From Mycobacteriales bacterium (lineage in GTDB: Bacteria; Actinomycetota; Actinomycetes; Mycobacteriales; Nakamurellaceae): a stretch of DNA of 64,000 nucleotides. The stretch spans positions 84,065-148,064 of the forward strand of contig JBBROB010000013.1 of assembly GCA_038229825.1 (NCBI GenBank), written 5' to 3'. The notes beneath the pieces are model-generated. The model was not told the DNA's origin and ran no database searches. It saw only the letters and a program-made list of their open reading frames with translations. The position numbers were made by a program, and so were the translations under genes. The number at the start of each line of letters is the position of its first letter. Positions within the stretch are counted from its first letter, which is position 1. Shown piece by piece: positions 11,798 to 64,000 of this stretch.

Positions 11798-11921
11798 AGG
11801 GGTTGTGAGGAATACCGGGCGCATCCCGGCATCCTGCCGGTCGGCCCGCCGTGGGTCTGCCGTGACCGCCCACGAGACTCGTCGATGTATGTAGTGAAAA
11901 CATCCCAGTGAGGAACACCCC

Positions 11922-53134: not shown

Positions 53135-53359
53135 TCACATCGAAGGCGGCCCGCCTCCGGGTTGATTCGTCACTTCGATGAAGATGACGCTCGCGCATCG
53201 GCCATTGATCAGCAGAACGCTGCCGCTGTCGTCGTCGTCGATGACTACGGTGCGGCCGAGGTCCACCGCCTCCTTCAACTGAGATGTCAGGACACCGAGA
53301 TCCGTTCCGAACGGGACGGGGTAGGAAGCCCCGTCAACTGAGATGCTGATATGTTTCAT
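53135..53359 (-). CDS. Small hypothetical protein (74 aa) translationally coupled to the LAL regulator
   Basis: ATGA overlap (53356-53359) with the regulator stop. 'MKHISISVDGASYPVPFGTDLGVLTSQLKEAV...VVIDDDDSGSVLLINGR'. No family recognised. Confidence 0.45.
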   Translation of the reverse strand: MKHISISVDGASYPVPFGTDLGVLTSQLKEAVDLGRTVVIDDDDSGSVLLINGRCASVIFIEVTNQPGGGPPSM

Positions 53360-56295
53360 GACTGATCTGCCCTTCGCCTGGCGGAATTCCGGTTATCGAT
53401 CTGATGAGCTGACGCATCCAGTTTATGGGCGAGGGCGGCTGCCTGGCCCCGATTATCAACACCCATCTTCGCCAGGATGTTGCTGACATGCACGCTCGCG
53501 GTCTTTTCGGTGATGAAGAGTGTTCTGGCGATCTGCCGGTTGCTCGTCCCTGATTTGAGTAGCCCGAGGACCTCACGTTCTCGGGTGGTCAAACCCATCC
53601 TCTGGGCCGCCGACATCGGCGTCGGCGCGGTGGCCGAAATGGCGACACCGGCCATCTCGGCGAGCTGCTCGATTCGCGCCAGCAGGGGTCGCGCCCCAAG
53701 TTCGTCGGCCTGCCGAGCGGCATCGCGAATAGTGTCATCCAGTCCTGCTTCGCGGCCTGAGAGTTGCGCTTCGGCGAGCCGAAAAAGTGCATAGGCACCG
53801 AGGTAGGGGCGATTCGCAGCTTGGGTCGACGTCGCAGCGGATCGCCATGCCTGTCCATCTGTCCCATCCGATGAACGGGCCAATTCGGCGTCGCAGAGCG
53901 CAATCATCGGTTGGCAGGAGCGCTTGTTCCGGAACGGTTCGACGCAGTCGACAATTTGCAACGCGATGCGGCGCAACTGTTCCCCGTCGATCCCTTCCAG
54001 CAGGCGTAGTTCCTCGCCGGAATCGATGAGTGCACGCAGCGCCAGAGCCGAGAGTCGCGAGAAGGCCTGGCCCCCATCGGTGGAAGGGAATCCGTCCAGT
54101 GCGGCAATAGCCACTTCGAAGGCCTGCCGTGGCTGGCCGTCCCAGAACAGGGCTTCGACCCGACAGATGGTGAAAAGGCCGGTGGCCCAGTACTCGTTCA
54201 ACGACGCCACCCTTGGCGCGTGATCATCCAGGAAGGTCGCCCCACGAACGGCGCCGGTCGAGATGTCAAGATCGGCCCTGATGAGGTCGAGGTAGAGCTG
54301 ATGTCCCCCGGGTGCGACCCTGTCGGCGCCGTCCAGCAGCAACTCCCTCGCTTCCGTCCACCGGCCCAGGGTCAGCAAGGTGGCCGCTGCGTTGCACTTG
54401 AGGATGGCACCGGCGCTGTGCGCCAAGCCATATCGCCGGGTGAACGACAGCCCCTCCATCGCGACGTCGACCGATTCCTGCAGTCGGTCGGCGAGATCCA
54501 GGACGTAGGCCAGGTTGTTGTACGCGCGGCACACATCCTCCAGTGCGCCGGCCTCTCTGGCCTTCGAGAGCGATTCCCTCAGGAACGTGATGCCGCGGTC
54601 TACTTCACCGGTGCTCGCCAGGCTGGTGCCCAGAGTGTTCAACGCGTAACTCAACTCGGGTACCGATCCGACCGTTCTGGCCATGGCGACCGCCCTGCCG
54701 GCGACCGCGATCGAGGTGTCGTGATCACCGCGCAGCATCGAGATCGCTGCCAGCGCAGACAAGGCTCTCGCATGTTCCTTCGACGGGCCGCAGTCGGCGA
54801 GCACCTCACAGCTGCGTCGGGCGGCCAGCAGGGAGGACGGCCCTGACCCGCGCTCCCAGTGGTATCTGGCGAGCCTTTCCCACGCGCGGCTTTCGATCAG
54901 TCCGGCCCCGGTGACCGGAAGGTGGTTCAATGCGGCAGAACTCAGCTCGATGGCCCGATCGAGCTGATCGATCCAGCGCAGCGACTCCGCGAACTCCAAA
55001 TGCAATTCGGCCAGGGCGGCGCCCGAGGCTGACTCCGGACTGCTCACATTCGACAGTTCGACCGCCTTCTCGTACAGTGCGGCCGCATCGGCATAGGCCA
55101 GCCGTCCGGCGGCGGCCCGCGCGGCCACCACGATGGGGCCAAACGCCCGCGCCGGTTGTCCGGCCAACAGCCAATGCCGCGCGACAGCGCCGGCGCAGTC
55201 GCTGGTCAATTCCCGGCCGGGGATCAGCAACGCCTCGGCCAGTGCGCGATGAAGCTCCTGACGTTCGGCCGGGAGCAGTTCGTCGTCGATCACCTCAGCG
55301 AAAAGTGCGTGGCGGAACCTCAGCGAGGTCTGCGAGCGATCTGCAACGAGCAGGCCCGTACGGACGGCAAGGCGGGTAGCCTCGCCGAGTTCGACCGGCG
55401 CGGCCTGACACGCTCGCTCCAGCACGGGGACCGGCAACTCCTGACCGCCGGCAGCGACCAATTGCAGCATTCTTCGGGCCACCACCGGTAGCGGCGCAAC
55501 GCGGGCAGCAACATGATCTCGGAGCGTCTCCGGCAGGGTTCCCTCTGTGCTGCTGAGCACTTCAGCCAGGAACGGATTTCCGCCGGACCGAGCGACAACT
55601 TCCGCCCGCCGTCGGAGGCTGACCTCCGGCATCAGCTGCGCGACCAGATCGGTCGTGTCTTTCTCGTCGAGGGCGGCCAGGTCCAGGCGAAGCACGTTCG
55701 ACTGGAGCCCGGCCATGGCCAGCACGGGCCGCAGCGGATGAGCGAAATGCAATTCGTCGGATCGAAAGGTCGCGATGATCTGCAGGCGCTGACCGTAGGC
55801 GTTTCGGACCAGGAACGCCAGTGCGTCCAGGGTCGCCATGTCCGACCAGTGCAGGTCCTCGAGAGCGAGCACAACAGGGCGGTCTTCGGCCAGTTCGGTG
55901 AGCAGGTTCAGCAACAGCTCGAACAGCCTGGTCTGGGCCGTAGCGGCGTTGTCGTCGGTGGAACCCAGCAGCGGCAGCAAGGGTGCGAGGGCGCTGCGCC
56001 GGGCCGGGTCGAGCCAGTTCACAATGTCCGGATCGTGGTGGATGGTGCGGAGGGCCCCCGCTATCGGACCGTAGGGCAGCGCCCCGTGGTTCAGCGGCTG
56101 GCAACTTCCCAGCAGAACGCGCACGCCACACCGAGTTGCCTGTCCCAGGTGTTCGACGAGGATTCGCGTCTTACCGACCCCGGCCTCACCCGAGACGAAC
56201 GCCGTCTGGGTGACACCGTCGGTTGCGGCCGCGAGAGACTCCAACAGGCTCGCGAGTTGGGCGTCCCGCCCTACCACTCGCGCTCGAGGCGACAT
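53356..56295 (-). CDS. LAL-type regulator (N-terminal AAA/P-loop ATPase, TPR-like middle, C-terminal LuxR HTH)
   Basis: 979 aa. Walker A 'VSGEAGVGKTRIL' and Walker B-like 'VVLALEDLHWSD'. C-terminal 'LTTREREVLGLLKSGTSNRQIARTLFITEKTASVHVSNILAKMG'. Divergent from lanL. Confidence 0.85.
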   Translation of the reverse strand: MSPRARVVGRDAQLASLLESLAAATDGVTQTAFVSGEAGVGKTRILVEHLGQATRCGVRVLLGSCQPLNHGALPYGPIAGALRTIHHDPDIVNWLDPARRSALAPLLPLLGSTDDNAATAQTRLFELLLNLLTELAEDRPVVLALEDLHWSDMATLDALAFLVRNAYGQRLQIIATFRSDELHFAHPLRPVLAMAGLQSNVLRLDLAALDEKDTTDLVAQLMPEVSLRRRAEVVARSGGNPFLAEVLSSTEGTLPETLRDHVAARVAPLPVVARRMLQLVAAGGQELPVPVLERACQAAPVELGEATRLAVRTGLLVADRSQTSLRFRHALFAEVIDDELLPAERQELHRALAEALLIPGRELTSDCAGAVARHWLLAGQPARAFGPIVVAARAAAGRLAYADAAALYEKAVELSNVSSPESASGAALAELHLEFAESLRWIDQLDRAIELSSAALNHLPVTGAGLIESRAWERLARYHWERGSGPSSLLAARRSCEVLADCGPSKEHARALSALAAISMLRGDHDTSIAVAGRAVAMARTVGSVPELSYALNTLGTSLASTGEVDRGITFLRESLSKAREAGALEDVCRAYNNLAYVLDLADRLQESVDVAMEGLSFTRRYGLAHSAGAILKCNAAATLLTLGRWTEARELLLDGADRVAPGGHQLYLDLIRADLDISTGAVRGATFLDDHAPRVASLNEYWATGLFTICRVEALFWDGQPRQAFEVAIAALDGFPSTDGGQAFSRLSALALRALIDSGEELRLLEGIDGEQLRRIALQIVDCVEPFRNKRSCQPMIALCDAELARSSDGTDGQAWRSAATSTQAANRPYLGAYALFRLAEAQLSGREAGLDDTIRDAARQADELGARPLLARIEQLAEMAGVAISATAPTPMSAAQRMGLTTREREVLGLLKSGTSNRQIARTLFITEKTASVHVSNILAKMGVDNRGQAAALAHKLDASAHQIDNRNSARRRADQS

Positions 56296-56436
56296 GGCTC
56301 GAGTATGGCCCAGAGCAGCCCACCCGCGGGCGGTTTTACAAGGGCTCCATCACTAAGTCCGGAAGCCCGCGGGCTAGGTAGTTCTGCCGATGTCAACGGC
56401 GCGCGTCCCGTGCGAATCTCGTTTCACGAACCCCCT

Positions 56437-56448
56437 GGACCATGGTCC
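56437..56448. promoter_or_regulatory. Perfect 12-bp palindrome GGACCATGGTCC, 44 bp upstream of lanL (candidate operator)
   Basis: Self-complementary sequence in the divergent regulator/lanL intergenic region. Two copies of the palindromic octamer CCCGCGGG also occur at 56323-56330 and 56366-56373. Confidence 0.25.
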
Positions 56449-56491
56449 CAGGCAGCACCCAGGTTCGTTCTGACAGACGAGGAGAAATCAG

Positions 56492-59215
56492 ATGACCCAG
56501 CAGGCGGTTCTCGGACGGCGGGCGGCTAGTTCGACCGACAACTCTCTGGAGCAAGCAAGTCTGGGTGAGGTCCTGGCCGGTTTGATCGCCGACGCGCCGA
56601 ACCCTGCCCTGTGGTCCTTCCGCCTCGACGGTGTGTGGGCGTATGCGCATACGGCAAAGCCGCTCCCGATTCAGGGATGGAAATTGCATGTCTCAGCGAC
56701 CGTCGGTTCCGCCGAGAGCGTGTTGAGGGCCTGCGCCGGTGTGCTGCTGGCGGCCGGATGCAACTTCAAGGTGGCCAGCACGTCCGAGCACGTACAGGGC
56801 CTGACAGATTCGCATTGCCCGGCGGAGAGTGCCGGAAAGGTATTGACCGCCTATCCGGGTGACGATGATTCGGCCGTCACCCTGGCCCAGCGGCTCGACG
56901 TGGCAACGAGAGGGTTTGACGGGCCGCGGATTCTCTCCGATCGGCCGTTCGTCCCCGGAAGTCTTGTCCACTACCGCTTCGGTGCATTCACCGGAATACC
57001 GCACGTCTCCCATGATGGCGACGTCACCGCCGCCCTGATGGCTCCGGACGGCACCCCCGTGGCCGACAGCCGCGAGGTCGGCCGTCCGGCACCGGAATGG
57101 GCCAGCCGACCGTTCGTCGTTGCTCCGGCCGGCGATGAAAAGGCGGCCGGACCGCGCCCAGTGATGCTGGCCGATCGTTATGTGGTGCAGGAGGCAATCC
57201 GTCATGCCTACCGCGGCGGCGTCTTTCGTGCCGTCGACCAGAAGTCGGGCCTGACGGTGGTGGTCAAGCAGGCCAGGGCGAACGTCGGCGCAGGTCGCGA
57301 CGGCCTGGATGTGCGCGATCGCCTCCGACACGAGGCCGCGGTGCTCCAGGCGCTGGCCGGACGCGGTTGGGTACCGGAATTGGTGGACACCTTCGAGCAG
57401 GACGGTGACGTGTTCGTGATCGAACAATTCATCCCCGGTCTCAACCTCCGCCAGTGGGTGAATGCCGGTGTGCGCGACGGAATTGTCCTGCGGCCGGTTG
57501 GGGAGGCCCTTCAGGTGCTGGCCAGGGCCGCGACGGTACTGGTCGACCTTCACGCGGCGGGCGTGGTGGTCCGCGACTTCAGCCCCAATAACGTCGTCGT
57601 CGGCGATAGCGGTCAGGTGGTACTGGTCGACCTGGAACTTGCCGATGTACCTGGGATCCCGGTGGGCATCGCACCAGGGGGCACCAGAGCCTACGGGTCG
57701 CCGGAGCAATTCGCAGGCAGCTCTCCACATCGCAGCACCGACGCCTACGCACTCGGCGCGGTCATCGCCTTCACCCTGACGGGTGAGGATCCGCTGCTCT
57801 GGCTCGACACCGTTCCCGACATGCGGAGCTGGCTGGCTCATGGGGTCCGGCAAGCCAGCTGCCCGCCCGACGTCGCGGACCTGGTCGTCGCCTTGTGCTC
57901 GGTGGATCCTGCCGCCCGGCCGACGGCTGCGGCGGCGGCCGATATGTTGCGCACCGCAAAGGCTTCTGCCCCTTCGTTGACGGTCCCGCTGGTCGCCCGG
58001 GCGGCCCTGCAGGACATCCGGCCGATGTCCGAGGCCGAGTTGGACGCAGCCATCGCTGCGCTTCTGGACCGACTGCTTGCCGACGTACACCCGGGGCGAC
58101 AGCGAGTCGCTCGGTCGTCCGGTTTCGGTGAGTCAACGTTGGCGACCAACGTCCAGCATGGTGCGGCCGGGATTCTCGGTGCCATGGTGTCAACGTTCGA
58201 CGCGCTGCACGACGATCGACTGCTCGAGAAGATCCATGACGTTGCGAGGTGGCTGGAACTCGCCGTCGAACGCCATCCCGCGACGGGTCCGGTGGGGTTG
58301 TATTTCGGGTATTCAGGTCCACTCTGGGCCCTGGCCGACGCCGGCGTTGCGCTCGGCGACCCAGCCATGGTCACCAGCGCCTGCGAGCGGGCATTGGCAC
58401 TGCCGACCAGTTGGCCGTCGCCGGATGTCACCCACGGAGTCGCGGGGCTCGGACTGACACTGGTCCATCTGTGGCAGCTCACTGGCGATCGGCGACTGCG
58501 GGACAGGGTGCTCCAGGCTGGGGGGCATCTGCTTGACTGCGCCGAACTGGACGTCGGTGCCGGTCCCGCCGGACCGAGCATCTCCTGGCGGACGCCGCGC
58601 GGGGTTGCCTCGACATTCGCCGGCGGCCGCTTCAATGGATTCGCGCACGGCACGGCGGGTATCGGATTGTTCCTCGAGCACGCTGCCCTGGTGACAAAGG
58701 CAATCGAGTTCGCCGACGCAGCAACACTTGCAGCACAGACACTCGCAAGGGCTGCGGTGCGGCGCGACGGCATGGCGACCTGGGGCTCAAGCCCAGAAAG
58801 GCCGGATCCCGGCCTGACGTACTGGTGCAACGGCTCGTCCGGGGTGGCCACCTTCCTGTCCCGCCATGCCGCGGCCACCGGCGATCAAGACCAACAGCTG
58901 CTCGGAGAAGCGGCACTGTCCCTGGTCAGAAACAAGTGGAAATCCGGGATTTCCTACTGCCATGGGCTTTCCGGCGATGCCGACCTGCTCCTGGATCTGG
59001 CTGAGACCACCTCGGAGCGATACCGGGACTGGGCCGGTGACCTGTTGCGCTGCATGTGGGCCCGCCGGGTGACGGACACGCTCGGACCGGCCCTGTCCGA
59101 CGAGCCCGGCCAAGTCGTGCCGGATTTCAATGTCGGCTACGGTGGCCCGCTCACGGTGCTGCTGCGTTTACGGCACGGTGGCGCCCGGTCCTGGCTCCCG
59201 GCGCTGCGGCCATGA
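56492..59215 (+). CDS. lanL: Class IV lanthionine synthetase (LanL-type): N-terminal phosphoSer/Thr lyase, central Ser/Thr kinase, C-terminal Zn-type LanC cyclase
   Basis: GAGGAG lies upstream of the ATG. Lyase-domain hallmark 'IQGWKLHVSA'. Kinase motifs 'VVKQARANVG', 'VVRDFSPNNVVV' and 'LVDLELA'. LanC motifs 'HGVAGLG', 'HGTAGIG', 'YWCNGSSG' (Cys codon 58826-58828) and 'SYCHGLSG' (Cys-His codons 58958-58963). Confidence 0.85.
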   Translation: MTQQAVLGRRAASSTDNSLEQASLGEVLAGLIADAPNPALWSFRLDGVWAYAHTAKPLPIQGWKLHVSATVGSAESVLRACAGVLLAAGCNFKVASTSEHVQGLTDSHCPAESAGKVLTAYPGDDDSAVTLAQRLDVATRGFDGPRILSDRPFVPGSLVHYRFGAFTGIPHVSHDGDVTAALMAPDGTPVADSREVGRPAPEWASRPFVVAPAGDEKAAGPRPVMLADRYVVQEAIRHAYRGGVFRAVDQKSGLTVVVKQARANVGAGRDGLDVRDRLRHEAAVLQALAGRGWVPELVDTFEQDGDVFVIEQFIPGLNLRQWVNAGVRDGIVLRPVGEALQVLARAATVLVDLHAAGVVVRDFSPNNVVVGDSGQVVLVDLELADVPGIPVGIAPGGTRAYGSPEQFAGSSPHRSTDAYALGAVIAFTLTGEDPLLWLDTVPDMRSWLAHGVRQASCPPDVADLVVALCSVDPAARPTAAAAADMLRTAKASAPSLTVPLVARAALQDIRPMSEAELDAAIAALLDRLLADVHPGRQRVARSSGFGESTLATNVQHGAAGILGAMVSTFDALHDDRLLEKIHDVARWLELAVERHPATGPVGLYFGYSGPLWALADAGVALGDPAMVTSACERALALPTSWPSPDVTHGVAGLGLTLVHLWQLTGDRRLRDRVLQAGGHLLDCAELDVGAGPAGPSISWRTPRGVASTFAGGRFNGFAHGTAGIGLFLEHAALVTKAIEFADAATLAAQTLARAAVRRDGMATWGSSPERPDPGLTYWCNGSSGVATFLSRHAAATGDQDQQLLGEAALSLVRNKWKSGISYCHGLSGDADLLLDLAETTSERYRDWAGDLLRCMWARRVTDTLGPALSDEPGQVVPDFNVGYGGPLTVLLRLRHGGARSWLPALRP

Positions 59216-61041
59216 CCACGACGATGATCGAGGCGGCCGGGCCGGCCACCGATTGCGCGGCGGCAGCCCCGGCCAGGGTGTCCTGGCGATTCTCGCCCGG
59301 CGGTGCGGTCGCCGCCTGCACGGTGGTGCGCCCCGGCCGGCCACCGGAGCTGGAGATCCGGACCGGGACGAGTCGGCGGAGATTGACCATTCAGGATCTT
59401 TCGGTCTACAGCCAGCTCCTGCCGACCGACGATGGTGCGGTGTTCATCGCTCACCAGATCGGCGGGTTGAGCCACATCCTGCTGGTGCGCGCGGACGGAG
59501 CGGTGTCGACGACGACCCATCGCAGCGCAGGTGGGTTGGCGCTCGTGGCCCGACCTGGAGGTACCGGGGTGGTCGCTGTCGAATCCACCCTCGCCGGCGC
59601 GAGCCGACTGCTGGAGTACCGCAACAGCCGGTTCTGCGAATTGGTGTCGTTCGACGGAATTGCCGTCGGCGCGGTCTGGCTGGACGATGTGGGCCGCCGA
59701 ATGGCGGTCAACATCACCGGCCCCGGGCAGCACTGCTCAGCGATCGACATCGACCTGACAACCGGCGACATCACCCCGATGCTGTCGATCTCGCCGACGA
59801 GCGACGACAGGATCAGCGGCTACCTGCCGCGTGCCAACCTGATCGTGTTGTCCACCAACGCGACCGGTGAAATACGGCTTGGCTACGGTCATCCCGGCGT
59901 CGACCGGGTGGCCTTCCCGGACAGCCTGTCGGCCTGCGGTCCGGTGACCTACCTTGCCGGCTCGTCCGACGGCGCGGTGCTGGCCGTGGCAGTGGACCAG
60001 GGAACGTCCTCCGTTGTTCGCATCGTCGATACCGGCTCTGGCCTGGGGACAGATCTGCCGCTGCCTCCGCTGGTGGTCATTGGCTCAGGACAAATCCGCG
60101 GAACCCGGTTGACGTTGCCGGTCAGCACATCGGATCGGCCGGGCACCTTGTTGCACGTCGACATCCGCTCCGGAGTGCACAGTTTCGAGGATCCGGCGGA
60201 GCCGGGGGCGGTCCGGCCGGCCGTTCGTTGGCTACCCGGCGCGGACGGACCGGTGGAGAGTCTGATTTACGGAGACGTCGAGGCCGCGGCCGTCGCCGTG
60301 GTCGCCCTGCACGGCGGCCCGGTGCAGGCGTGGCGGGCAACCTTCGATCCGCTGCTTGCCGAACTGGTCGCCAACGGGATTGCCGTGGTCGCACCCAATA
60401 TTCGGGGTTCCAGCGGCTACGGACGTGACCATGTCATGGCCATCCGTAACCGGTGGGGCGGACCGGACTGCGACGATGTGCTCGCGATCGGCAGGTGGCT
60501 CATCGCGCGCAGGGGCGGTGCGGCGATGCGCCCGATCGTGCTCGGAACTTCCTACGGCGCGTTCCTGGGAATGCTTGCGGCGCAGCGCGCGCCGGGCGAC
60601 TGGTCGGGATGTGTGGCCCTGTCGACCTTCATCAGTGGCGCGCGGGTCGTCGACGCCGGCGGGGCGGTCGCCGAGTTGGTCCGTCGACTCGGCGGCGTGA
60701 CGTCCCCGGATCTGCGAGATCGACTGGATCGGATATCGGTCCCGGTGCTGCTGGTGCACGGCACCGCCGACCACGTTGTCCCGGTGAGCGAATCAGGCCT
60801 GCTGGCCGCCGGCCTGCGTGCTCATGGTTGCCCGGTGCACCACCTGGAGATCAGCGGGGGCGGTCATGACCTCATCAGCGATCCACAGCGCAGAGTTTGC
60901 ATCGACGCGATCCTCGACTTCTGCAGGGAGGTGAAGAAATTTGACTTCGGACGCGGTCCTGATGAAGGAGAAGGAACCCAAGCGGTGCAATGGCCCGCCC
61001 CGGCAGCCACCAGACCGGCACGCACAAACAACGAGAAATGA
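59212..61041 (+). CDS. S9 (prolyl oligopeptidase family) serine peptidase, likely the leader peptidase
   Basis: ATG 59212 overlaps the lanL stop (ATGA). N-terminal propeller-like region. C-terminal alpha/beta hydrolase with nucleophile 'LGTSYGAFLG', 'LVHGTADHVVP' and 'SGGGHD'. Confidence 0.8.
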   Translation: MTTTMIEAAGPATDCAAAAPARVSWRFSPGGAVAACTVVRPGRPPELEIRTGTSRRRLTIQDLSVYSQLLPTDDGAVFIAHQIGGLSHILLVRADGAVSTTTHRSAGGLALVARPGGTGVVAVESTLAGASRLLEYRNSRFCELVSFDGIAVGAVWLDDVGRRMAVNITGPGQHCSAIDIDLTTGDITPMLSISPTSDDRISGYLPRANLIVLSTNATGEIRLGYGHPGVDRVAFPDSLSACGPVTYLAGSSDGAVLAVAVDQGTSSVVRIVDTGSGLGTDLPLPPLVVIGSGQIRGTRLTLPVSTSDRPGTLLHVDIRSGVHSFEDPAEPGAVRPAVRWLPGADGPVESLIYGDVEAAAVAVVALHGGPVQAWRATFDPLLAELVANGIAVVAPNIRGSSGYGRDHVMAIRNRWGGPDCDDVLAIGRWLIARRGGAAMRPIVLGTSYGAFLGMLAAQRAPGDWSGCVALSTFISGARVVDAGGAVAELVRRLGGVTSPDLRDRLDRISVPVLLVHGTADHVVPVSESGLLAAGLRAHGCPVHHLEISGGGHDLISDPQRRVCIDAILDFCREVKKFDFGRGPDEGEGTQAVQWPAPAATRPARTNNEK

Positions 61042-61056
61042 AAGGAGGATTGAGAA

Positions 61057-61200
61057 ATGAGCATTGATATCGCGGAACTGGACTTGCTGCCAGCGGTGGC
61101 TGCGGCTCCGACCACCGATGATCTGGCCGAATTGGGTCTGATGTGGTGCTGGATCACGTGCTGGCACACGTGCTGGATCACCGATCACATCCAGATCTGA
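61057..61200 (+). CDS. lanA1: Lanthipeptide precursor 1 (47 aa): MSIDIAELDLLPAVAAAPTTDDLAELGLMWCWITCWHTCWITDHIQI
   Basis: Translated by hand. AAAGGAGGA (61041-61049) sits 7 nt upstream of the ATG. It lies directly downstream of the synthetase and protease genes. The leader is shared with the second peptide, and the core has 3 Cys and 3 Thr. It is below the size cut-off of the supplied ORF track. Confidence 0.7.
   Translation: MSIDIAELDLLPAVAAAPTTDDLAELGLMWCWITCWHTCWITDHIQI
61147..61182 (+). repeat. 12-nt in-frame tandem repeat x3 (TGCTGG-ATC/CAC-ACG/ACC) encoding (Cys-Trp-Ile/His-Thr)x3
   Basis: Read directly: tgctggatcacg / tgctggcacacg / tgctggatcacc. Confidence 0.9.
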
Positions 61201-61210
61201 TGGCCGCCGT

Positions 61211-61238
61211 GGCAGGGGTGGTGTGCCCGTCTCCTGCC
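61211..61238 (+). terminator. Stem-loop between the two precursor genes (8-bp stem GGCAGGGG / CTCCTGCC including one G-U, 12-nt loop); possible attenuator or processing site
   Basis: The inverted repeat 61211-61218 / 61231-61238 is visible in the sequence, starting 11 nt after the lanA1 stop. There is no U-tract. Confidence 0.3.
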
Positions 61239-61302
61239 CTGTCACGCGCTATATCCGGATCCAAGACGGCTCTCCCCACACCTCGAAAGGGGGTGAATCA
61301 AA

Positions 61303-61446
61303 ATGAGCATCGACATCATGGAACTTGACCTGCTGCCGGAGATCGACCCGATCTCCACTGCCGATCTCGACGAAATGGGTCTACAGGTCTGCCGGCCCAC
61401 TTGTCTGTTCAATTCCTGCTTTTTCACCAAGGACTTCTATTTCTGA
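61303..61446 (+). CDS. lanA2: Lanthipeptide precursor 2 (47 aa): MSIDIMELDLLPEIDPISTADLDEMGLQVCRPTCLFNSCFFTKDFYF
   Basis: Translated by hand. GAAAGGGGG lies about 10 nt upstream of the ATG. The leader 'MSIDI-ELDLLP...DL-E-GL' is conserved with precursor 1, and both are 47 aa. The core has 3 Cys and 3 Ser/Thr. Confidence 0.7.
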   Translation: MSIDIMELDLLPEIDPISTADLDEMGLQVCRPTCLFNSCFFTKDFYF

Positions 61447-61556
61447 CAATCCTGGTGTGCCCTTCGGTCTGAGGCGGTGCCCTGGGTGCGGCGTGGATTC
61501 CCTGCCGCGCCCGGGGCGGCCGACCTCAATTCGACTCCCCGCAAATCTGATGAGGT

Positions 61557-63242
61557 GTGAAGATGAAGGACGCCATGACCAACCCCTGGCGTATTGCTCC
61601 GATCTGGACTTCGGTGGCAGTGTCGGCGGCAGTCGTCGGCACGGCCACGAGTCTGGCCATCCCCGCCCTGGTCGGTCGGACAATCACCGCATTTGCGCAA
61701 GGTCGAGAATCGGCCCAGCTCATCTGGCTGTTGATCGCCGCAGTGGCCGCGACGGTGACGATGGGCGTGCTCGCGGCTGTGGCCGGCGGGTCCGGGAGTG
61801 CGCTCATCACCGCCGGCATCCGCCGCGCACTGAGCCGCTCGATCGTCCGCACCGAAGGTCCCGGCGTCGACGGGGTTCGATTCGGCACATCGGATCTGAT
61901 CACGCGCCTTCTGCTCGACAGCAGCGCATTGTCGAGGGCTGTGCCGATAGCCGTCAGCCTGATTCTCTCCTGCGCCAGCCTGTTGGTCGGCATGGTCATG
62001 CTGCTGCTCATCGACTGGTGGCTACTGGTCGGAGTAGTGGCGGGACTGCTGCTGTTGACAGCGATGTTGCGCCGCTACATCGACGACACCGCCGGTCCGA
62101 TCTCGACCTACCGCGAGAGCCAGGCCGAGATCGGGCAGCGACTTCTCGACGCCCAAAGGGGTTCGGCCAGCATCCGTGCGTACGGGACATGGATGCGCGA
62201 ACTCGCTCGCATCGTCCGGCCGCTGCCCGTCCTGCGGGCGGTCGGATCGCGACTCTGGGCCGCACAAGGGCGAATGGCCTGGCGTTCGTCGATCTTCGTT
62301 CCCTCGATTCAACTCTCGATGGTCGGGCTGGGGTGCGTGTCGATGGCCGCAGGTCGGATCAGCGTCGGCCAACTGGTCACCGCGCTGGCCTACAGCACGG
62401 TGATCCTGGGGGCGTTGGATGGCGTGGAGGCGGCCGCCGGTCTCAATCTGGTCAAGGCCGGACGCAGTCGGATCGTCGAAGTCGTCGGATCCTGGACACC
62501 CGGGCGAGTCACCGGCTCGCCGCCGTCGACCGATGAGCCGTTGGAAGTGGTGCTGGACTCGGTGACGGTGCTGGGTGCCGACGGCGGGCCGATTCTCGAC
62601 GACATCAGCTTGACCATTCCAGCGGGTGCACTGGTCGCTGTCACCGGGCCGGCCGGCTCCGGCCGTTCGACCTTCGCCGGCATGGTGGCCGGCACGATCG
62701 TCCCGGCTTCAGGAAACGTGCTGATCGGCGGCGTCCCGCTGGTGCAGATACCGGCGGCAGCTCGGGCCGGACTGGTCGTCCTCGGCTCGTCCCGACCGGC
62801 GCTGATCGGTGAGACCGTCGCCGGTCTGATCGGACTGGGCCTAGGCCCGCTGACGGCCGACGTCGTGGCACAGAACGCCAGGGACGCGCACATCGCCGAT
62901 GTCATCGATGCCCTGCCGGGCGGTTACCTCGCCCGGCTGGACGAACTGCAACTTTCCGGTGGTGAGTTGCAGCGGCTGGGCATCGCCCAGGCAATGGCCA
63001 GGAACAGCAAGGTGATGGTGCTGGACGACGCCACCTCGAACCTCGACGCGGCCACCGAGCGAGAGGTGGTCGGCGCGCTCCGTGCGGCCGGCCGCGGGTG
63101 CACCTGCATCCTGGTGACCAATCGTCCGGCGGTGGCGCGACTGGCGGATGTGGTCATCCGGCTGGAAGCGGGTCATGTCGTGTCCTCAACAACACTGTCT
63201 TCCTCAACAGCGCCGTCCTCAACAATGGCGAGCATGAGATGA
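61557..63242 (+). CDS. ABC exporter half-transporter (TMD-NBD fusion)
   Basis: N-terminal 6-TM domain. Walker A 'GPAGSGRST', signature 'LSGGELQRLGIA' and Walker B 'VMVLDDATSNLD'. The start is GTG 61557 or ATG 61563. Confidence 0.85.
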   Translation: MKMKDAMTNPWRIAPIWTSVAVSAAVVGTATSLAIPALVGRTITAFAQGRESAQLIWLLIAAVAATVTMGVLAAVAGGSGSALITAGIRRALSRSIVRTEGPGVDGVRFGTSDLITRLLLDSSALSRAVPIAVSLILSCASLLVGMVMLLLIDWWLLVGVVAGLLLLTAMLRRYIDDTAGPISTYRESQAEIGQRLLDAQRGSASIRAYGTWMRELARIVRPLPVLRAVGSRLWAAQGRMAWRSSIFVPSIQLSMVGLGCVSMAAGRISVGQLVTALAYSTVILGALDGVEAAAGLNLVKAGRSRIVEVVGSWTPGRVTGSPPSTDEPLEVVLDSVTVLGADGGPILDDISLTIPAGALVAVTGPAGSGRSTFAGMVAGTIVPASGNVLIGGVPLVQIPAAARAGLVVLGSSRPALIGETVAGLIGLGLGPLTADVVAQNARDAHIADVIDALPGGYLARLDELQLSGGELQRLGIAQAMARNSKVMVLDDATSNLDAATEREVVGALRAAGRGCTCILVTNRPAVARLADVVIRLEAGHVVSSTTLSSSTAPSSTMASMR

Positions 63243-64000
63243 GCCGGGCAACGGGAGCTGGAAAGCTGCCGCGCGCACTGCCGGCGACCGGGTCGGACCT
63301 GCTACGGGATTGCCTGCCCGGCCGGGGCGCCATCCTGCGTCTGTTCGCCTGGGTCGCCGCTGAGTCCGTGCCGGCGCTGCTGTCCGGGCTGTGCCTGGCC
63401 CGGGCGATCGATGCGCTGCAGGACCGCAGACCGGCCGCAGTGGTCGGTGCGCTGGCTGTGATGGCCGGCGCGATCGGTCTCGGCGCCATCGCCACCAGGG
63501 CACTCTATTTCTCTCTGGCGATCGTCGTCGACGACTTTCGCGACACTCTGATGGCTGCTGTCGTGCGTGGTTCGCTGCTTCGGATGACCGACGACGGACG
63601 TCCAGGGCCGAACACGCTGACCCAATTGATCGACCAGGTCGATCAGGTGCGCAACCTGCTGTCGGCTGTGCTGCGCGGTATCCGCTCGACGTTGGCCCCA
63701 CCCGTGGCGGTCTGCCTCGGGCTGTTCGCACTGGACCCCCGACTGGGTTGGGCCGTACTGATCCCGCTCGGTGCAGCCCTGGCCCTGTATGGAGCGCTGC
63801 TGCGCCGCGTCCTTTCCCGGGAGCGAGCAGCGGCGATAGCTGGGGAACGCCTTGGGGTCTGCGCCGGTTCGATCGTCCAGGCGATCGGTGACATTCGTGG
63901 GCTCTCAGCCCAGCAGTGGGCCCAGGACAGGATCGACGATGCCGTCGGATCGGTGGCGGCAGCCGACGCGGCAGCCGCCCGCACGGTCGCAAAGCGGCAC
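63239..64000 (+). CDS. Second ABC exporter half-transporter (TMD part only; 3' end beyond the window)
   Basis: ATG 63239 overlaps the previous stop (ATGA). The frame stays open to the window edge (254 codons). Hand translation 'MSRATGAGKLPRAL...LRLFAWVAAESVPALLSGLCLARAID...' is a hydrophobic type-I exporter TMD. It is not in the ORF track because no stop is reached. Confidence 0.7.
   Translation, partial: MSRATGAGKLPRALPATGSDLLRDCLPGRGAILRLFAWVAAESVPALLSGLCLARAIDALQDRRPAAVVGALAVMAGAIGLGAIATRALYFSLAIVVDDFRDTLMAAVVRGSLLRMTDDGRPGPNTLTQLIDQVDQVRNLLSAVLRGIRSTLAPPVAVCLGLFALDPRLGWAVLIPLGAALALYGALLRRVLSRERAAAIAGERLGVCAGSIVQAIGDIRGLSAQQWAQDRIDDAVGSVAAADAAAARTVAKRH

Follow-up and report, generated by a model that had tools for sequence, protein, structure and literature searches.

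A probable class IV lanthipeptide operon with two tandem-unit precursor genes and its own S9 peptidase gene in a Nakamurellaceae genome

Here, we analyse a 64,000-nucleotide stretch of DNA from a Nakamurellaceae bacterium (contig JBBROB010000013.1, positions 84,065 to 148,064 of the forward strand; hereafter 'the window') and describe two short genes, lanA1 and lanA2, that we take, with a probability of roughly 85%, to be genuine precursor genes in a class IV lanthipeptide operon made up of lanL, an S9 peptidase gene, lanA1, lanA2, a hairpin and two ABC half-transporter genes. An earlier note on this DNA, made from the sequence alone, had proposed that the two encoded peptides serve the neighbouring LanL, a proposal that found support on each point tested. 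No lanthipeptide class has been explored less than class IV, and the finding provides an entry to a large, coherent subfamily that combines a simple core rule with a dedicated protease and, plausibly, a new ring topology.

Two short genes downstream of lanL

The genes on which the argument rests are the following, with the basis of each assignment in brackets.

56492..59215, + strand: predicted class IV lanthionine synthetase LanL, 907 aa (Pfam, NCBIfam, zinc-site residues and PDB match)
59212..61041, + strand: S9-family serine peptidase, 609 aa (PF00326, gene call and catalytic triad)
61044..61048, + strand: Shine-Dalgarno sequence GGAGG of lanA1 (sequence)
61057..61200, + strand: lanA1, encoding peptide 1, 47 codons with an ATG start (sequence and translation)
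61303..61446, + strand: lanA2, encoding peptide 2, 47 codons with an ATG start (sequence and translation)

Both lanA open reading frames (ORFs) are present with coordinates and translations identical to those reported before, have the same length of 47 codons, and sit on the same strand as lanL, 1.8-2.1 kb further downstream. The earlier note had ascribed a strong Shine-Dalgarno sequence to each. This holds for lanA1, whose GGAGG lies 8 nt before the ATG and 2 nt past the stop codon of the S9 peptidase gene, but not for lanA2, whose ribosome-binding site, AAAGGGGG, located about 8-9 nt upstream, is weaker and less canonical than was implied. The two peptides are 48% identical, with MSIDI-ELDLLP and a G-L junction invariant between them, and in a pairwise alignment their cores share C-x2-T-C...C-x2-T. 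In peptide 1, the leader spans residues 1-28, with a helix motif at I5, L8 and L11 and the junction at G27-L28, and is followed by the core MW-CWIT-CWHT-CWIT-DHIQI, which resolves into three tandem units; peptide 2 has a leader of the same type and the core QV-CRPT-CLFNS-CFFT-KDFYF, likewise with three tandem units. The counts given before of three Cys and three Ser/Thr per core are correct, as is that of 4 Trp in peptide 1, whereas the 5 Phe/Tyr reported for peptide 2 are in fact 5 Phe and 1 Tyr, six in all.

The region around the two genes is indeed richer in AT than its surroundings, as had been noticed before, with a GC content of 0.55-0.62 at 60900-61600 compared to 0.65-0.74 on both flanks. 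Two long ORFs overlap the lanA genes, one of 150 aa at 60793-61245 on the - strand and one of 403 aa at 61325-62536 on the + strand. Both are GC-rich artefacts, and such frames could lead automatic gene callers to mask real small genes. An Rfam search of 56000-62000 gave no match, a scan for sigma-70 promoters found none, and terminator-like sites occur at chance level.

The neighbourhoods of LanL homologues proved more informative than the peptides themselves: a word-indexed search with the two window peptides matched only themselves, and the family surfaced via these neighbourhoods. The closest LanL homologues (47-55% identity) all come from metagenomes or metagenome-assembled genomes (MAGs), and beside them lie one or two small ORFs of 48-50 codons per locus. 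Where the contigs are readable, the order is LanL, S9 peptidase with an overlapping start, small ORFs and two ABC genes, and the full gene order is kept in nine other loci, including that of the cultured Sphaerisporangium krabiense, with 1-3 precursors each. Orthologues of the window precursors were found in 11 other loci, all with GGAGG-type sites upstream and with the same plan of leader and core; a metagenome scan with the precursor alignment added one extra short locus. The earlier note had named a lack of conservation beside orthologous lanL genes as grounds for abandoning the proposal, and we found the small ORFs conserved in every related locus with context.

The most direct comparison comes from L015, a 1.4-kb contig from another sample that carries direct orthologues of both window peptides. 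The ratio of non-synonymous to synonymous substitution rates (dN/dS, NG86) against this locus is 0.23 for peptide 1 and 0.08 for peptide 2, at a dS of ~0.8, and the C-terminal TCWHTCWITDHIQI of peptide 1 is unchanged in its orthologue; other orthologue pairs have ratios of 0.11-0.53. Judged by these substitution patterns, the two small ORFs are genuine genes under purifying selection. Many spurious ORFs overlap the region on both strands, as one would expect if lanA1 and lanA2 were themselves chance frames in GC-rich DNA or untranslated remnants. We consider this explanation practically negligible, given that the two frames have ATG starts and Shine-Dalgarno sequences in an intergenic position, that their conservation extends to the 11 other loci, with dN/dS values far under 1, that one core rule holds across the 123 unique relatives described below, and that a pattern of at least three consecutive C-x2-4-[S/T] units occurs in lanA1 and lanA2 only when all six frames of the 64-kb window are scanned.

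Two of the related loci deserve a separate description. The S. krabiense locus (L012; JACHBR010000001.1, 3436960-3455085) has, at 8638-9126 of L012, three precursors of 35, 43 and 41 aa, whose leaders of ~21 aa pass from the helix to the G-L junction without a linker and two of which carry R instead of a near-invariant Pro12; its LanL is only 40% identical to that of the window. In L010 (8697-14492), several short calls stand in place of the S9 and ABC genes, which are intact in the near-identical L009, and the breaks seem to reflect frameshifts of the assembly and not decay.

Synthetases of classes III and IV have an equal domain order and differ in the zinc site of the cyclase (PMC7268733, PMC9292228). 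The window enzyme has the domains RamC_N (33-218), Pkinase (242-482) and LANC_like (552-844; Pfam). It scores 835 bits against NF038150, the class IV equivalog (cut-off 650), with 851/851 model positions covered, and 393 bits against NF038151, the class III (LanKC) model, below the cut-off of 575. The cyclase residues D645 (PDVTHG), H719 (FAHGTAG), C779 (WCNG) and C823-H824 (YCHG) are present and are kept in an alignment of 8 relatives; the counterparts of these five in SgbL, D642, H710, C769, C814 and H815, are essential (PMC9292228). Because the class IV model is passed, the class III model failed and the zinc ligands present, LanL is, by its sequence, a class IV lanthionine synthetase whose enzymatic activity we infer, and the name LanL given to it in the earlier note stands.

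A class III LanKC that makes labionin or class III-type rings would have the same domain order, a protease of the prolyl-oligopeptidase (POP) family has elsewhere been described in a class III cluster (PMC8341899), and the leader had been likened to a class III motif. These points are outweighed by the scores against the two models, by the presence of all the zinc ligands that LanKC lacks and by the absence of an S-x2-S-x2-5-C motif from either core, so that we regard a class III enzyme as highly improbable. A search of genome contigs with LanL returned two unrelated kinases.

The best PDB match of LanL, over its full length, is 8car_A, which we take to be CuvL, the synthetase of curvocidin. 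Opposite LanL residues 822-824, where LanL and other LanLs read x-C-H-G, 8car_A reads Q-C-C-G, and the usual His zinc ligand thus appears, in the alignment, to be replaced by Cys in that protein.

A precursor family built from tandem units

The leaders of the two peptides point to class IV as well. A θ-xx-θ-xx-θ stripe, formed by I5, L8 and L11, is invariant in 16 family peptides and corresponds to the leader motif described for classes III and IV (PMC11330476, PMC8341899). The earlier likeness to a class III/IV motif needs one correction: the class IV 'ALQxLPE(T)DP'/θ-xx-θ-xx-θ type, as in VenA, the venezuelin precursor, describes the leader better than the class III ILELQ type does. The stripe is followed by LPETDP, which is common to VenA; the VenA sequence used for this comparison is consistent with all residue numbers reported for venezuelin (PMC2843593).

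Family peptides give weak to passing matches to the class IV precursor models of NCBIfam. The model NF038157, 'ALQxL family class IV lanthipeptide', covers 17 leader positions and has a cut-off of 19 bits; close relatives of the window pair score 18.7-19.1 bits, on the threshold, and more distant tandem-core peptides pass it with 20-27 bits, among them P0225, P0222, P0188 and S. krabiense A1, all with tandem C-x-x-T cores. NCBI itself names one family member, MGD0244732.1, ALQxL, and this protein was recovered by our family profile. Against NF038147, the VenA family model (cut-off 35 bits), the window peptides have no match and their relatives score at most 26.4 bits. As the family profile matches both the window pair and the peptides that pass NF038157, the two are homologous, and by profile similarity the window peptides are divergent, unlabelled members of a family known at the annotation level as ALQxL.

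A profile of 16 peptides run against 5.8 billion proteins gave 58 matches, and with a profile of 53 sequences a search of 1.84 billion cluster representatives gave 75 clusters at E ≤ 0.001. The pooled set has 123 unique peptides with at least 2 Cys, on which all family counts are based, and corresponds to about 75 clusters at 50% identity, carried almost entirely by uncultured organisms. The family profile matches peptide 1 with an E value of 7.6e-17 and peptide 2 with 1.6e-15; in the library scan, peptide 1 scores 2.7e-15 and peptide 2 is not among the listed cluster representatives.

The core follows a simple rule. A Ser or Thr directly precedes every Cys after the first in 118/123 peptides (96%), and a Ser or Thr lies 3-5 residues past the last Cys in 122/123, so that the core is a spacer-free, head-to-tail array of C-x2-4-[S/T] units. 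Exactly two inner residues are found in 85% of the units, insertions are confined to unit interiors and never fall at the T-C border, and the number of unit-ending Ser/Thr equals that of Cys in peptides with 2 to 6 units. The peptides are distributed over the unit numbers as follows, with the window pair in a minority class.

2 units per core: 1 peptide
3 units per core: 22 peptides, including the window pair
4 units per core: 82 peptides (the usual number)
5 units per core: 10 peptides
6 units per core: 2 peptides

The aromatic and hydrophobic character of the two cores, which the earlier note had singled out as unusual, was rightly observed but is not peculiar to them: throughout the family, Trp and Phe fill the inner positions of the units more often than any other residue, which makes the aromatic core a family trait. 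The boundary that had been drawn between leader and core after G-L also agrees with the family at large, where, counted from the first Cys, Leu(-3) is found in 111/123 peptides and Gly(-4) in 95/123, marking the end of leader conservation.

One sub-branch of the family (P0178, P0181, P0204, P0214, P0218, P0220, P0221, P0226, P0233 and P0243) has five units ending in ...CGxLSC-xHT, followed by a hydrophilic C-terminal tail of 15-50 residues, which is unusual for a lanthipeptide precursor. P0219 was removed as a family member, being a 444-aa repeat protein with a spurious match to the leader profile. A reading of the peptides as radical-SAM substrates of the TIGR04114 'Cxxx repeat' type was likewise rejected, as the matches are sub-threshold and the operon has no radical SAM gene. 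A search of PDB chains with the precursor profile gave chance matches only, and in reviews up to 2025 we found no biochemical description of a tandem-core family.

Ring pattern, leader removal and operon context

The steps of the proposed pathway are modelled on the characterised class IV systems VenL, SgbL and CuvL. The kinase domain of LanL would bind the amphipathic leader helix through the I5-L8-L11 stripe and phosphorylate the Ser/Thr that closes each core unit, the lyase domain would eliminate the phosphate to give dehydrobutyrine or dehydroalanine (Dhb/Dha), and the zinc cyclase would add the Cys thiols to these, yielding three (methyl)lanthionine rings per peptide with a loss of 54 Da. 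The S9 peptidase, which would be cytoplasmic, would cut the leader off either behind the invariant Leu28 or closer to the first Cys, and the two ABC proteins would export the products.

For the rings, we lean, at slightly less than even odds, towards one per unit, from Cys(i) to Dhb(i+3), which would give three abutting rings with Cys on the N-terminal side. This arrangement is the simplest because the unit-ending Ser/Thr match the Cys in number at every unit count from 2 to 6, and the conservation of the first Cys and the last Thr supports it. Rings with Cys on the N-terminal side are also made by the LanL of venezuelin, namely Cys34-Dhb39 and Cys45-Dha49 (PMC2843593). The same genes and enzyme could nonetheless produce another pattern, with overlapping or nested rings as in venezuelin (for instance, between the Thr of one unit, n, and the Cys of unit n+2, or between the last Dhb and the first Cys), or a partial cyclisation that leaves Dhb and free Cys. 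The rings that VenL makes in venezuelin overlap and span 5 to 20 residues (PMC2843593), and the invariant T-C dipeptide suggests a constraint across unit borders; that insertions occur only within units is compatible with either model. A forward pairing of Thr(n) with Cys(n+2), however, would provide no partner for the first two Cys or for the last two Thr, although the first Cys never varies and at least 90% of members keep the last Thr, and the equal numbers of Ser/Thr and Cys are again most simply explained by one ring per unit. We therefore see such a pattern as a serious possibility, but not a probable one.

Whether the two peptides act together is a separate question. A two-component lanthipeptide would have no precedent in class IV. 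It is suggested by the presence of two or more different precursors in 9/11 loci and by the conservation of the A1 and A2 types as orthologous pairs within their clade, and such pairing is unusual in that 83% of class IV precursors stand alone in their cluster (Walker et al., PMC7268733). L009 and L010 have a single precursor, however, and S. krabiense has three, so that pairing is not obligatory, and one LanL serves all precursors, as it does in multi-substrate systems without synergy. On this evidence, a two-component system seems rather improbable.

The S9 peptidase gene starts within the lanL stop codon (ATGA), and its product scores 74.6 bits against PF00326 (cut-off 22.6). The triad Ser447/Asp520/His552 aligns with those of solved S9 enzymes and is kept in 9 loci, even though the peptidases of those loci are only 33-48% identical; its top matches in the PDB are acylaminoacyl peptidases, not POP, and no obvious signal peptide is seen in the sequence. 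The gene is present in 10/10 loci with full context, including that of S. krabiense. The association is specific: at L014 (3619-8664) of Kribbella albertanoniae, where a LanL of 40% identity lies downstream of radical SAM and methyltransferase genes, no S9 gene was found in the vicinity, and no tandem-core peptide either.

By analogy, the S9 enzyme is presumed to be the leader peptidase. Enzymes of family S9 are known to cut behind Pro, or behind Arg/Lys. At position -1 to the first Cys, 86/123 peptides (70%) carry R, K or P, the window pair carries W and V, and their L015 orthologues carry F and A, and the specificity of the peptidase might co-vary with this residue. Judging by conservation, candidate cleavage sites would lie after the near-invariant Leu(-3) or directly before the first Cys. 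Clusters of classes III and IV usually have no protease, the known exception being FlaP of the class III flavipeptin (PMC8341899).

Several points weigh against this interpretation as a whole or in its parts. The leader model NF038157 gives peptide 2 (P0001) 13.0 bits, below its cut-off, and peptide 1 (P0002) no match at all; the window peptides thereby show that the NCBI model misses divergent members. Characterised class IV peptides often have no antibiotic activity. Ring topology is not readable from sequence, independent rings from i to i+3 do not account for the strict T-C adjacency, and in venezuelin, the best-studied class IV product, the rings overlap (PMC2843593). As for leader removal, the window peptides do not have the R, K or P that 70% of their relatives carry at -1, and the conserved LPE is not attributable to the S9 peptidase, since VenA has it in a cluster without a protease; because VenA keeps the whole LPETDP there, this motif is more likely a feature of LanL than a cleavage site. 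In the literature, we found no transcript, peptide or enzymatic data for any family member.

In its boldest form, the model of one ring per unit predicts a rod of abutting four-residue rings, from three in the window to six elsewhere, together with an S9 enzyme that acts as a dedicated, non-post-proline leader peptidase of class IV, cutting after Leu(-3) or tracking residue -1. We rate this combination as unlikely on balance, and found no such lanthipeptide topology in the accessible literature. As the predicted products are small, very hydrophobic, rich in aromatic residues and nearly uncharged, a membrane- or surface-active role would suit them better than that of a cationic lantibiotic.

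The remaining features of the operon and its surroundings are as follows.

53356..56295, - strand: LAL/LuxR-type regulator, AAA_16 + TPR + GerE (Pfam matches)
61464..61534, + strand: long GC-rich hairpin that separates lanA2 from the ABC genes (folding energy)
61557..63242, + strand: ABC exporter half-transporter 1, a fusion of transmembrane (TMD) and nucleotide-binding (NBD) domains (Pfam and NCBIfam exporter families)
63239..64000, + strand: ABC exporter half-transporter 2, which runs past the end of the window (sequence; weak ABC_membrane match)

Half-transporter 1 has an ABC_membrane domain at residues 21-287 and an ABC_tran domain (Pfam), and no N-terminal C39 peptidase domain was found in the Pfam scan; the gene for half-transporter 2 starts within its stop codon (ATGA). 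A stem-loop is often found after lanA genes, and we read the hairpin in that light. It has a folding energy (ΔG) of -59.7 kcal/mol and a z-score of -4.1, with no T-run. An equivalent hairpin occurs at the same position in 7 other loci (8/8 tested, z = -3.1 to -5.2), namely L004 (about 11859-11888), L005, L006, L007, L008, L012 and L015; these have near-perfect stems of 13-16 bp and are conserved in position, but not in sequence. The hairpin may be an attenuator or an mRNA-stabilising structure, and it may set the ratio of precursor to exporter transcript.

The LAL/LuxR-type regulator gene is transcribed divergently from lanL, at a distance of 196 bp, and its product is a possible pathway regulator. 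We found no equivalent at that position in L004-L012, and without a counterpart in related loci, regulation appears to be locus-specific.

Comparison with known systems

The class IV products listed in reviews are venezuelin-like peptides, SflA, curvocidin and two products of a refactoring screen. The operon described here, with six genes (five where there is a single precursor), is compact and should be easy to refactor, and the cultured carrier S. krabiense makes native detection possible. If abutting, reverse-oriented rings were true, they would offer a new scaffold for peptide engineering and a series of substrates with 2-6 units in which iterative cyclisation by one LanL active site could be studied.

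With curvocidin (CuvA/CuvL, Thermomonospora curvata), the operon shares its class. CuvL (8car_A) is 29-37% identical to every LanL tested, in and outside the family, and being equally distant from both it serves as an outgroup. Curvocidin is reportedly 'tricyclic' and said to be made in nine catalytic steps, to which a core of three units would also correspond; the low identity of CuvL and the lack of a PDB chain that matches the precursor profile speak against a close relationship. The leader helix motif bound by the kinase domain is also common to the curvocidin system (PMC11330476).

Within class IV, SflA and its synthetase SflL show separate, non-overlapping methyllanthionine rings, but SflA has two rings, no cluster protease (AplP-like enzymes encoded elsewhere process it) and no tandem-unit core, as far as its description in the review goes (PMC8341899). 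A likeness for the protease lies outside the class. According to the same source, the class III flavipeptin cluster of Kribbella flavida (FlaA/FlaKC/FlaP) also encodes an S9 enzyme of the prolyl-oligopeptidase family, and FlaP cleaves inside the leader of the modified precursor; flavipeptin differs in having a LanKC without zinc ligands and cores with S-x2-S-x3-C labionin motifs, and the likeness to FlaP is drawn from its description.

At the level of the precursors, the window pair shares with the ALQxL family (NF038157) the leader start M-x-x-D-[IV]-x-x-L-[QD]-x-L-P-E, but reads ELDLLP where the family has ALQxLP, and has three units rather than the usual four. At the level of the whole system, venezuelin (VenA/VenL, Streptomyces venezuelae) is comparable in having a LanL with zinc ligands, ABC genes downstream, a leader with ...ALPETDP and a core in which Cys and Ser/Thr are equal in number, and it differs in its single precursor, its cluster without a protease, its non-repetitive core and its overlapping rings (PMC2843593).

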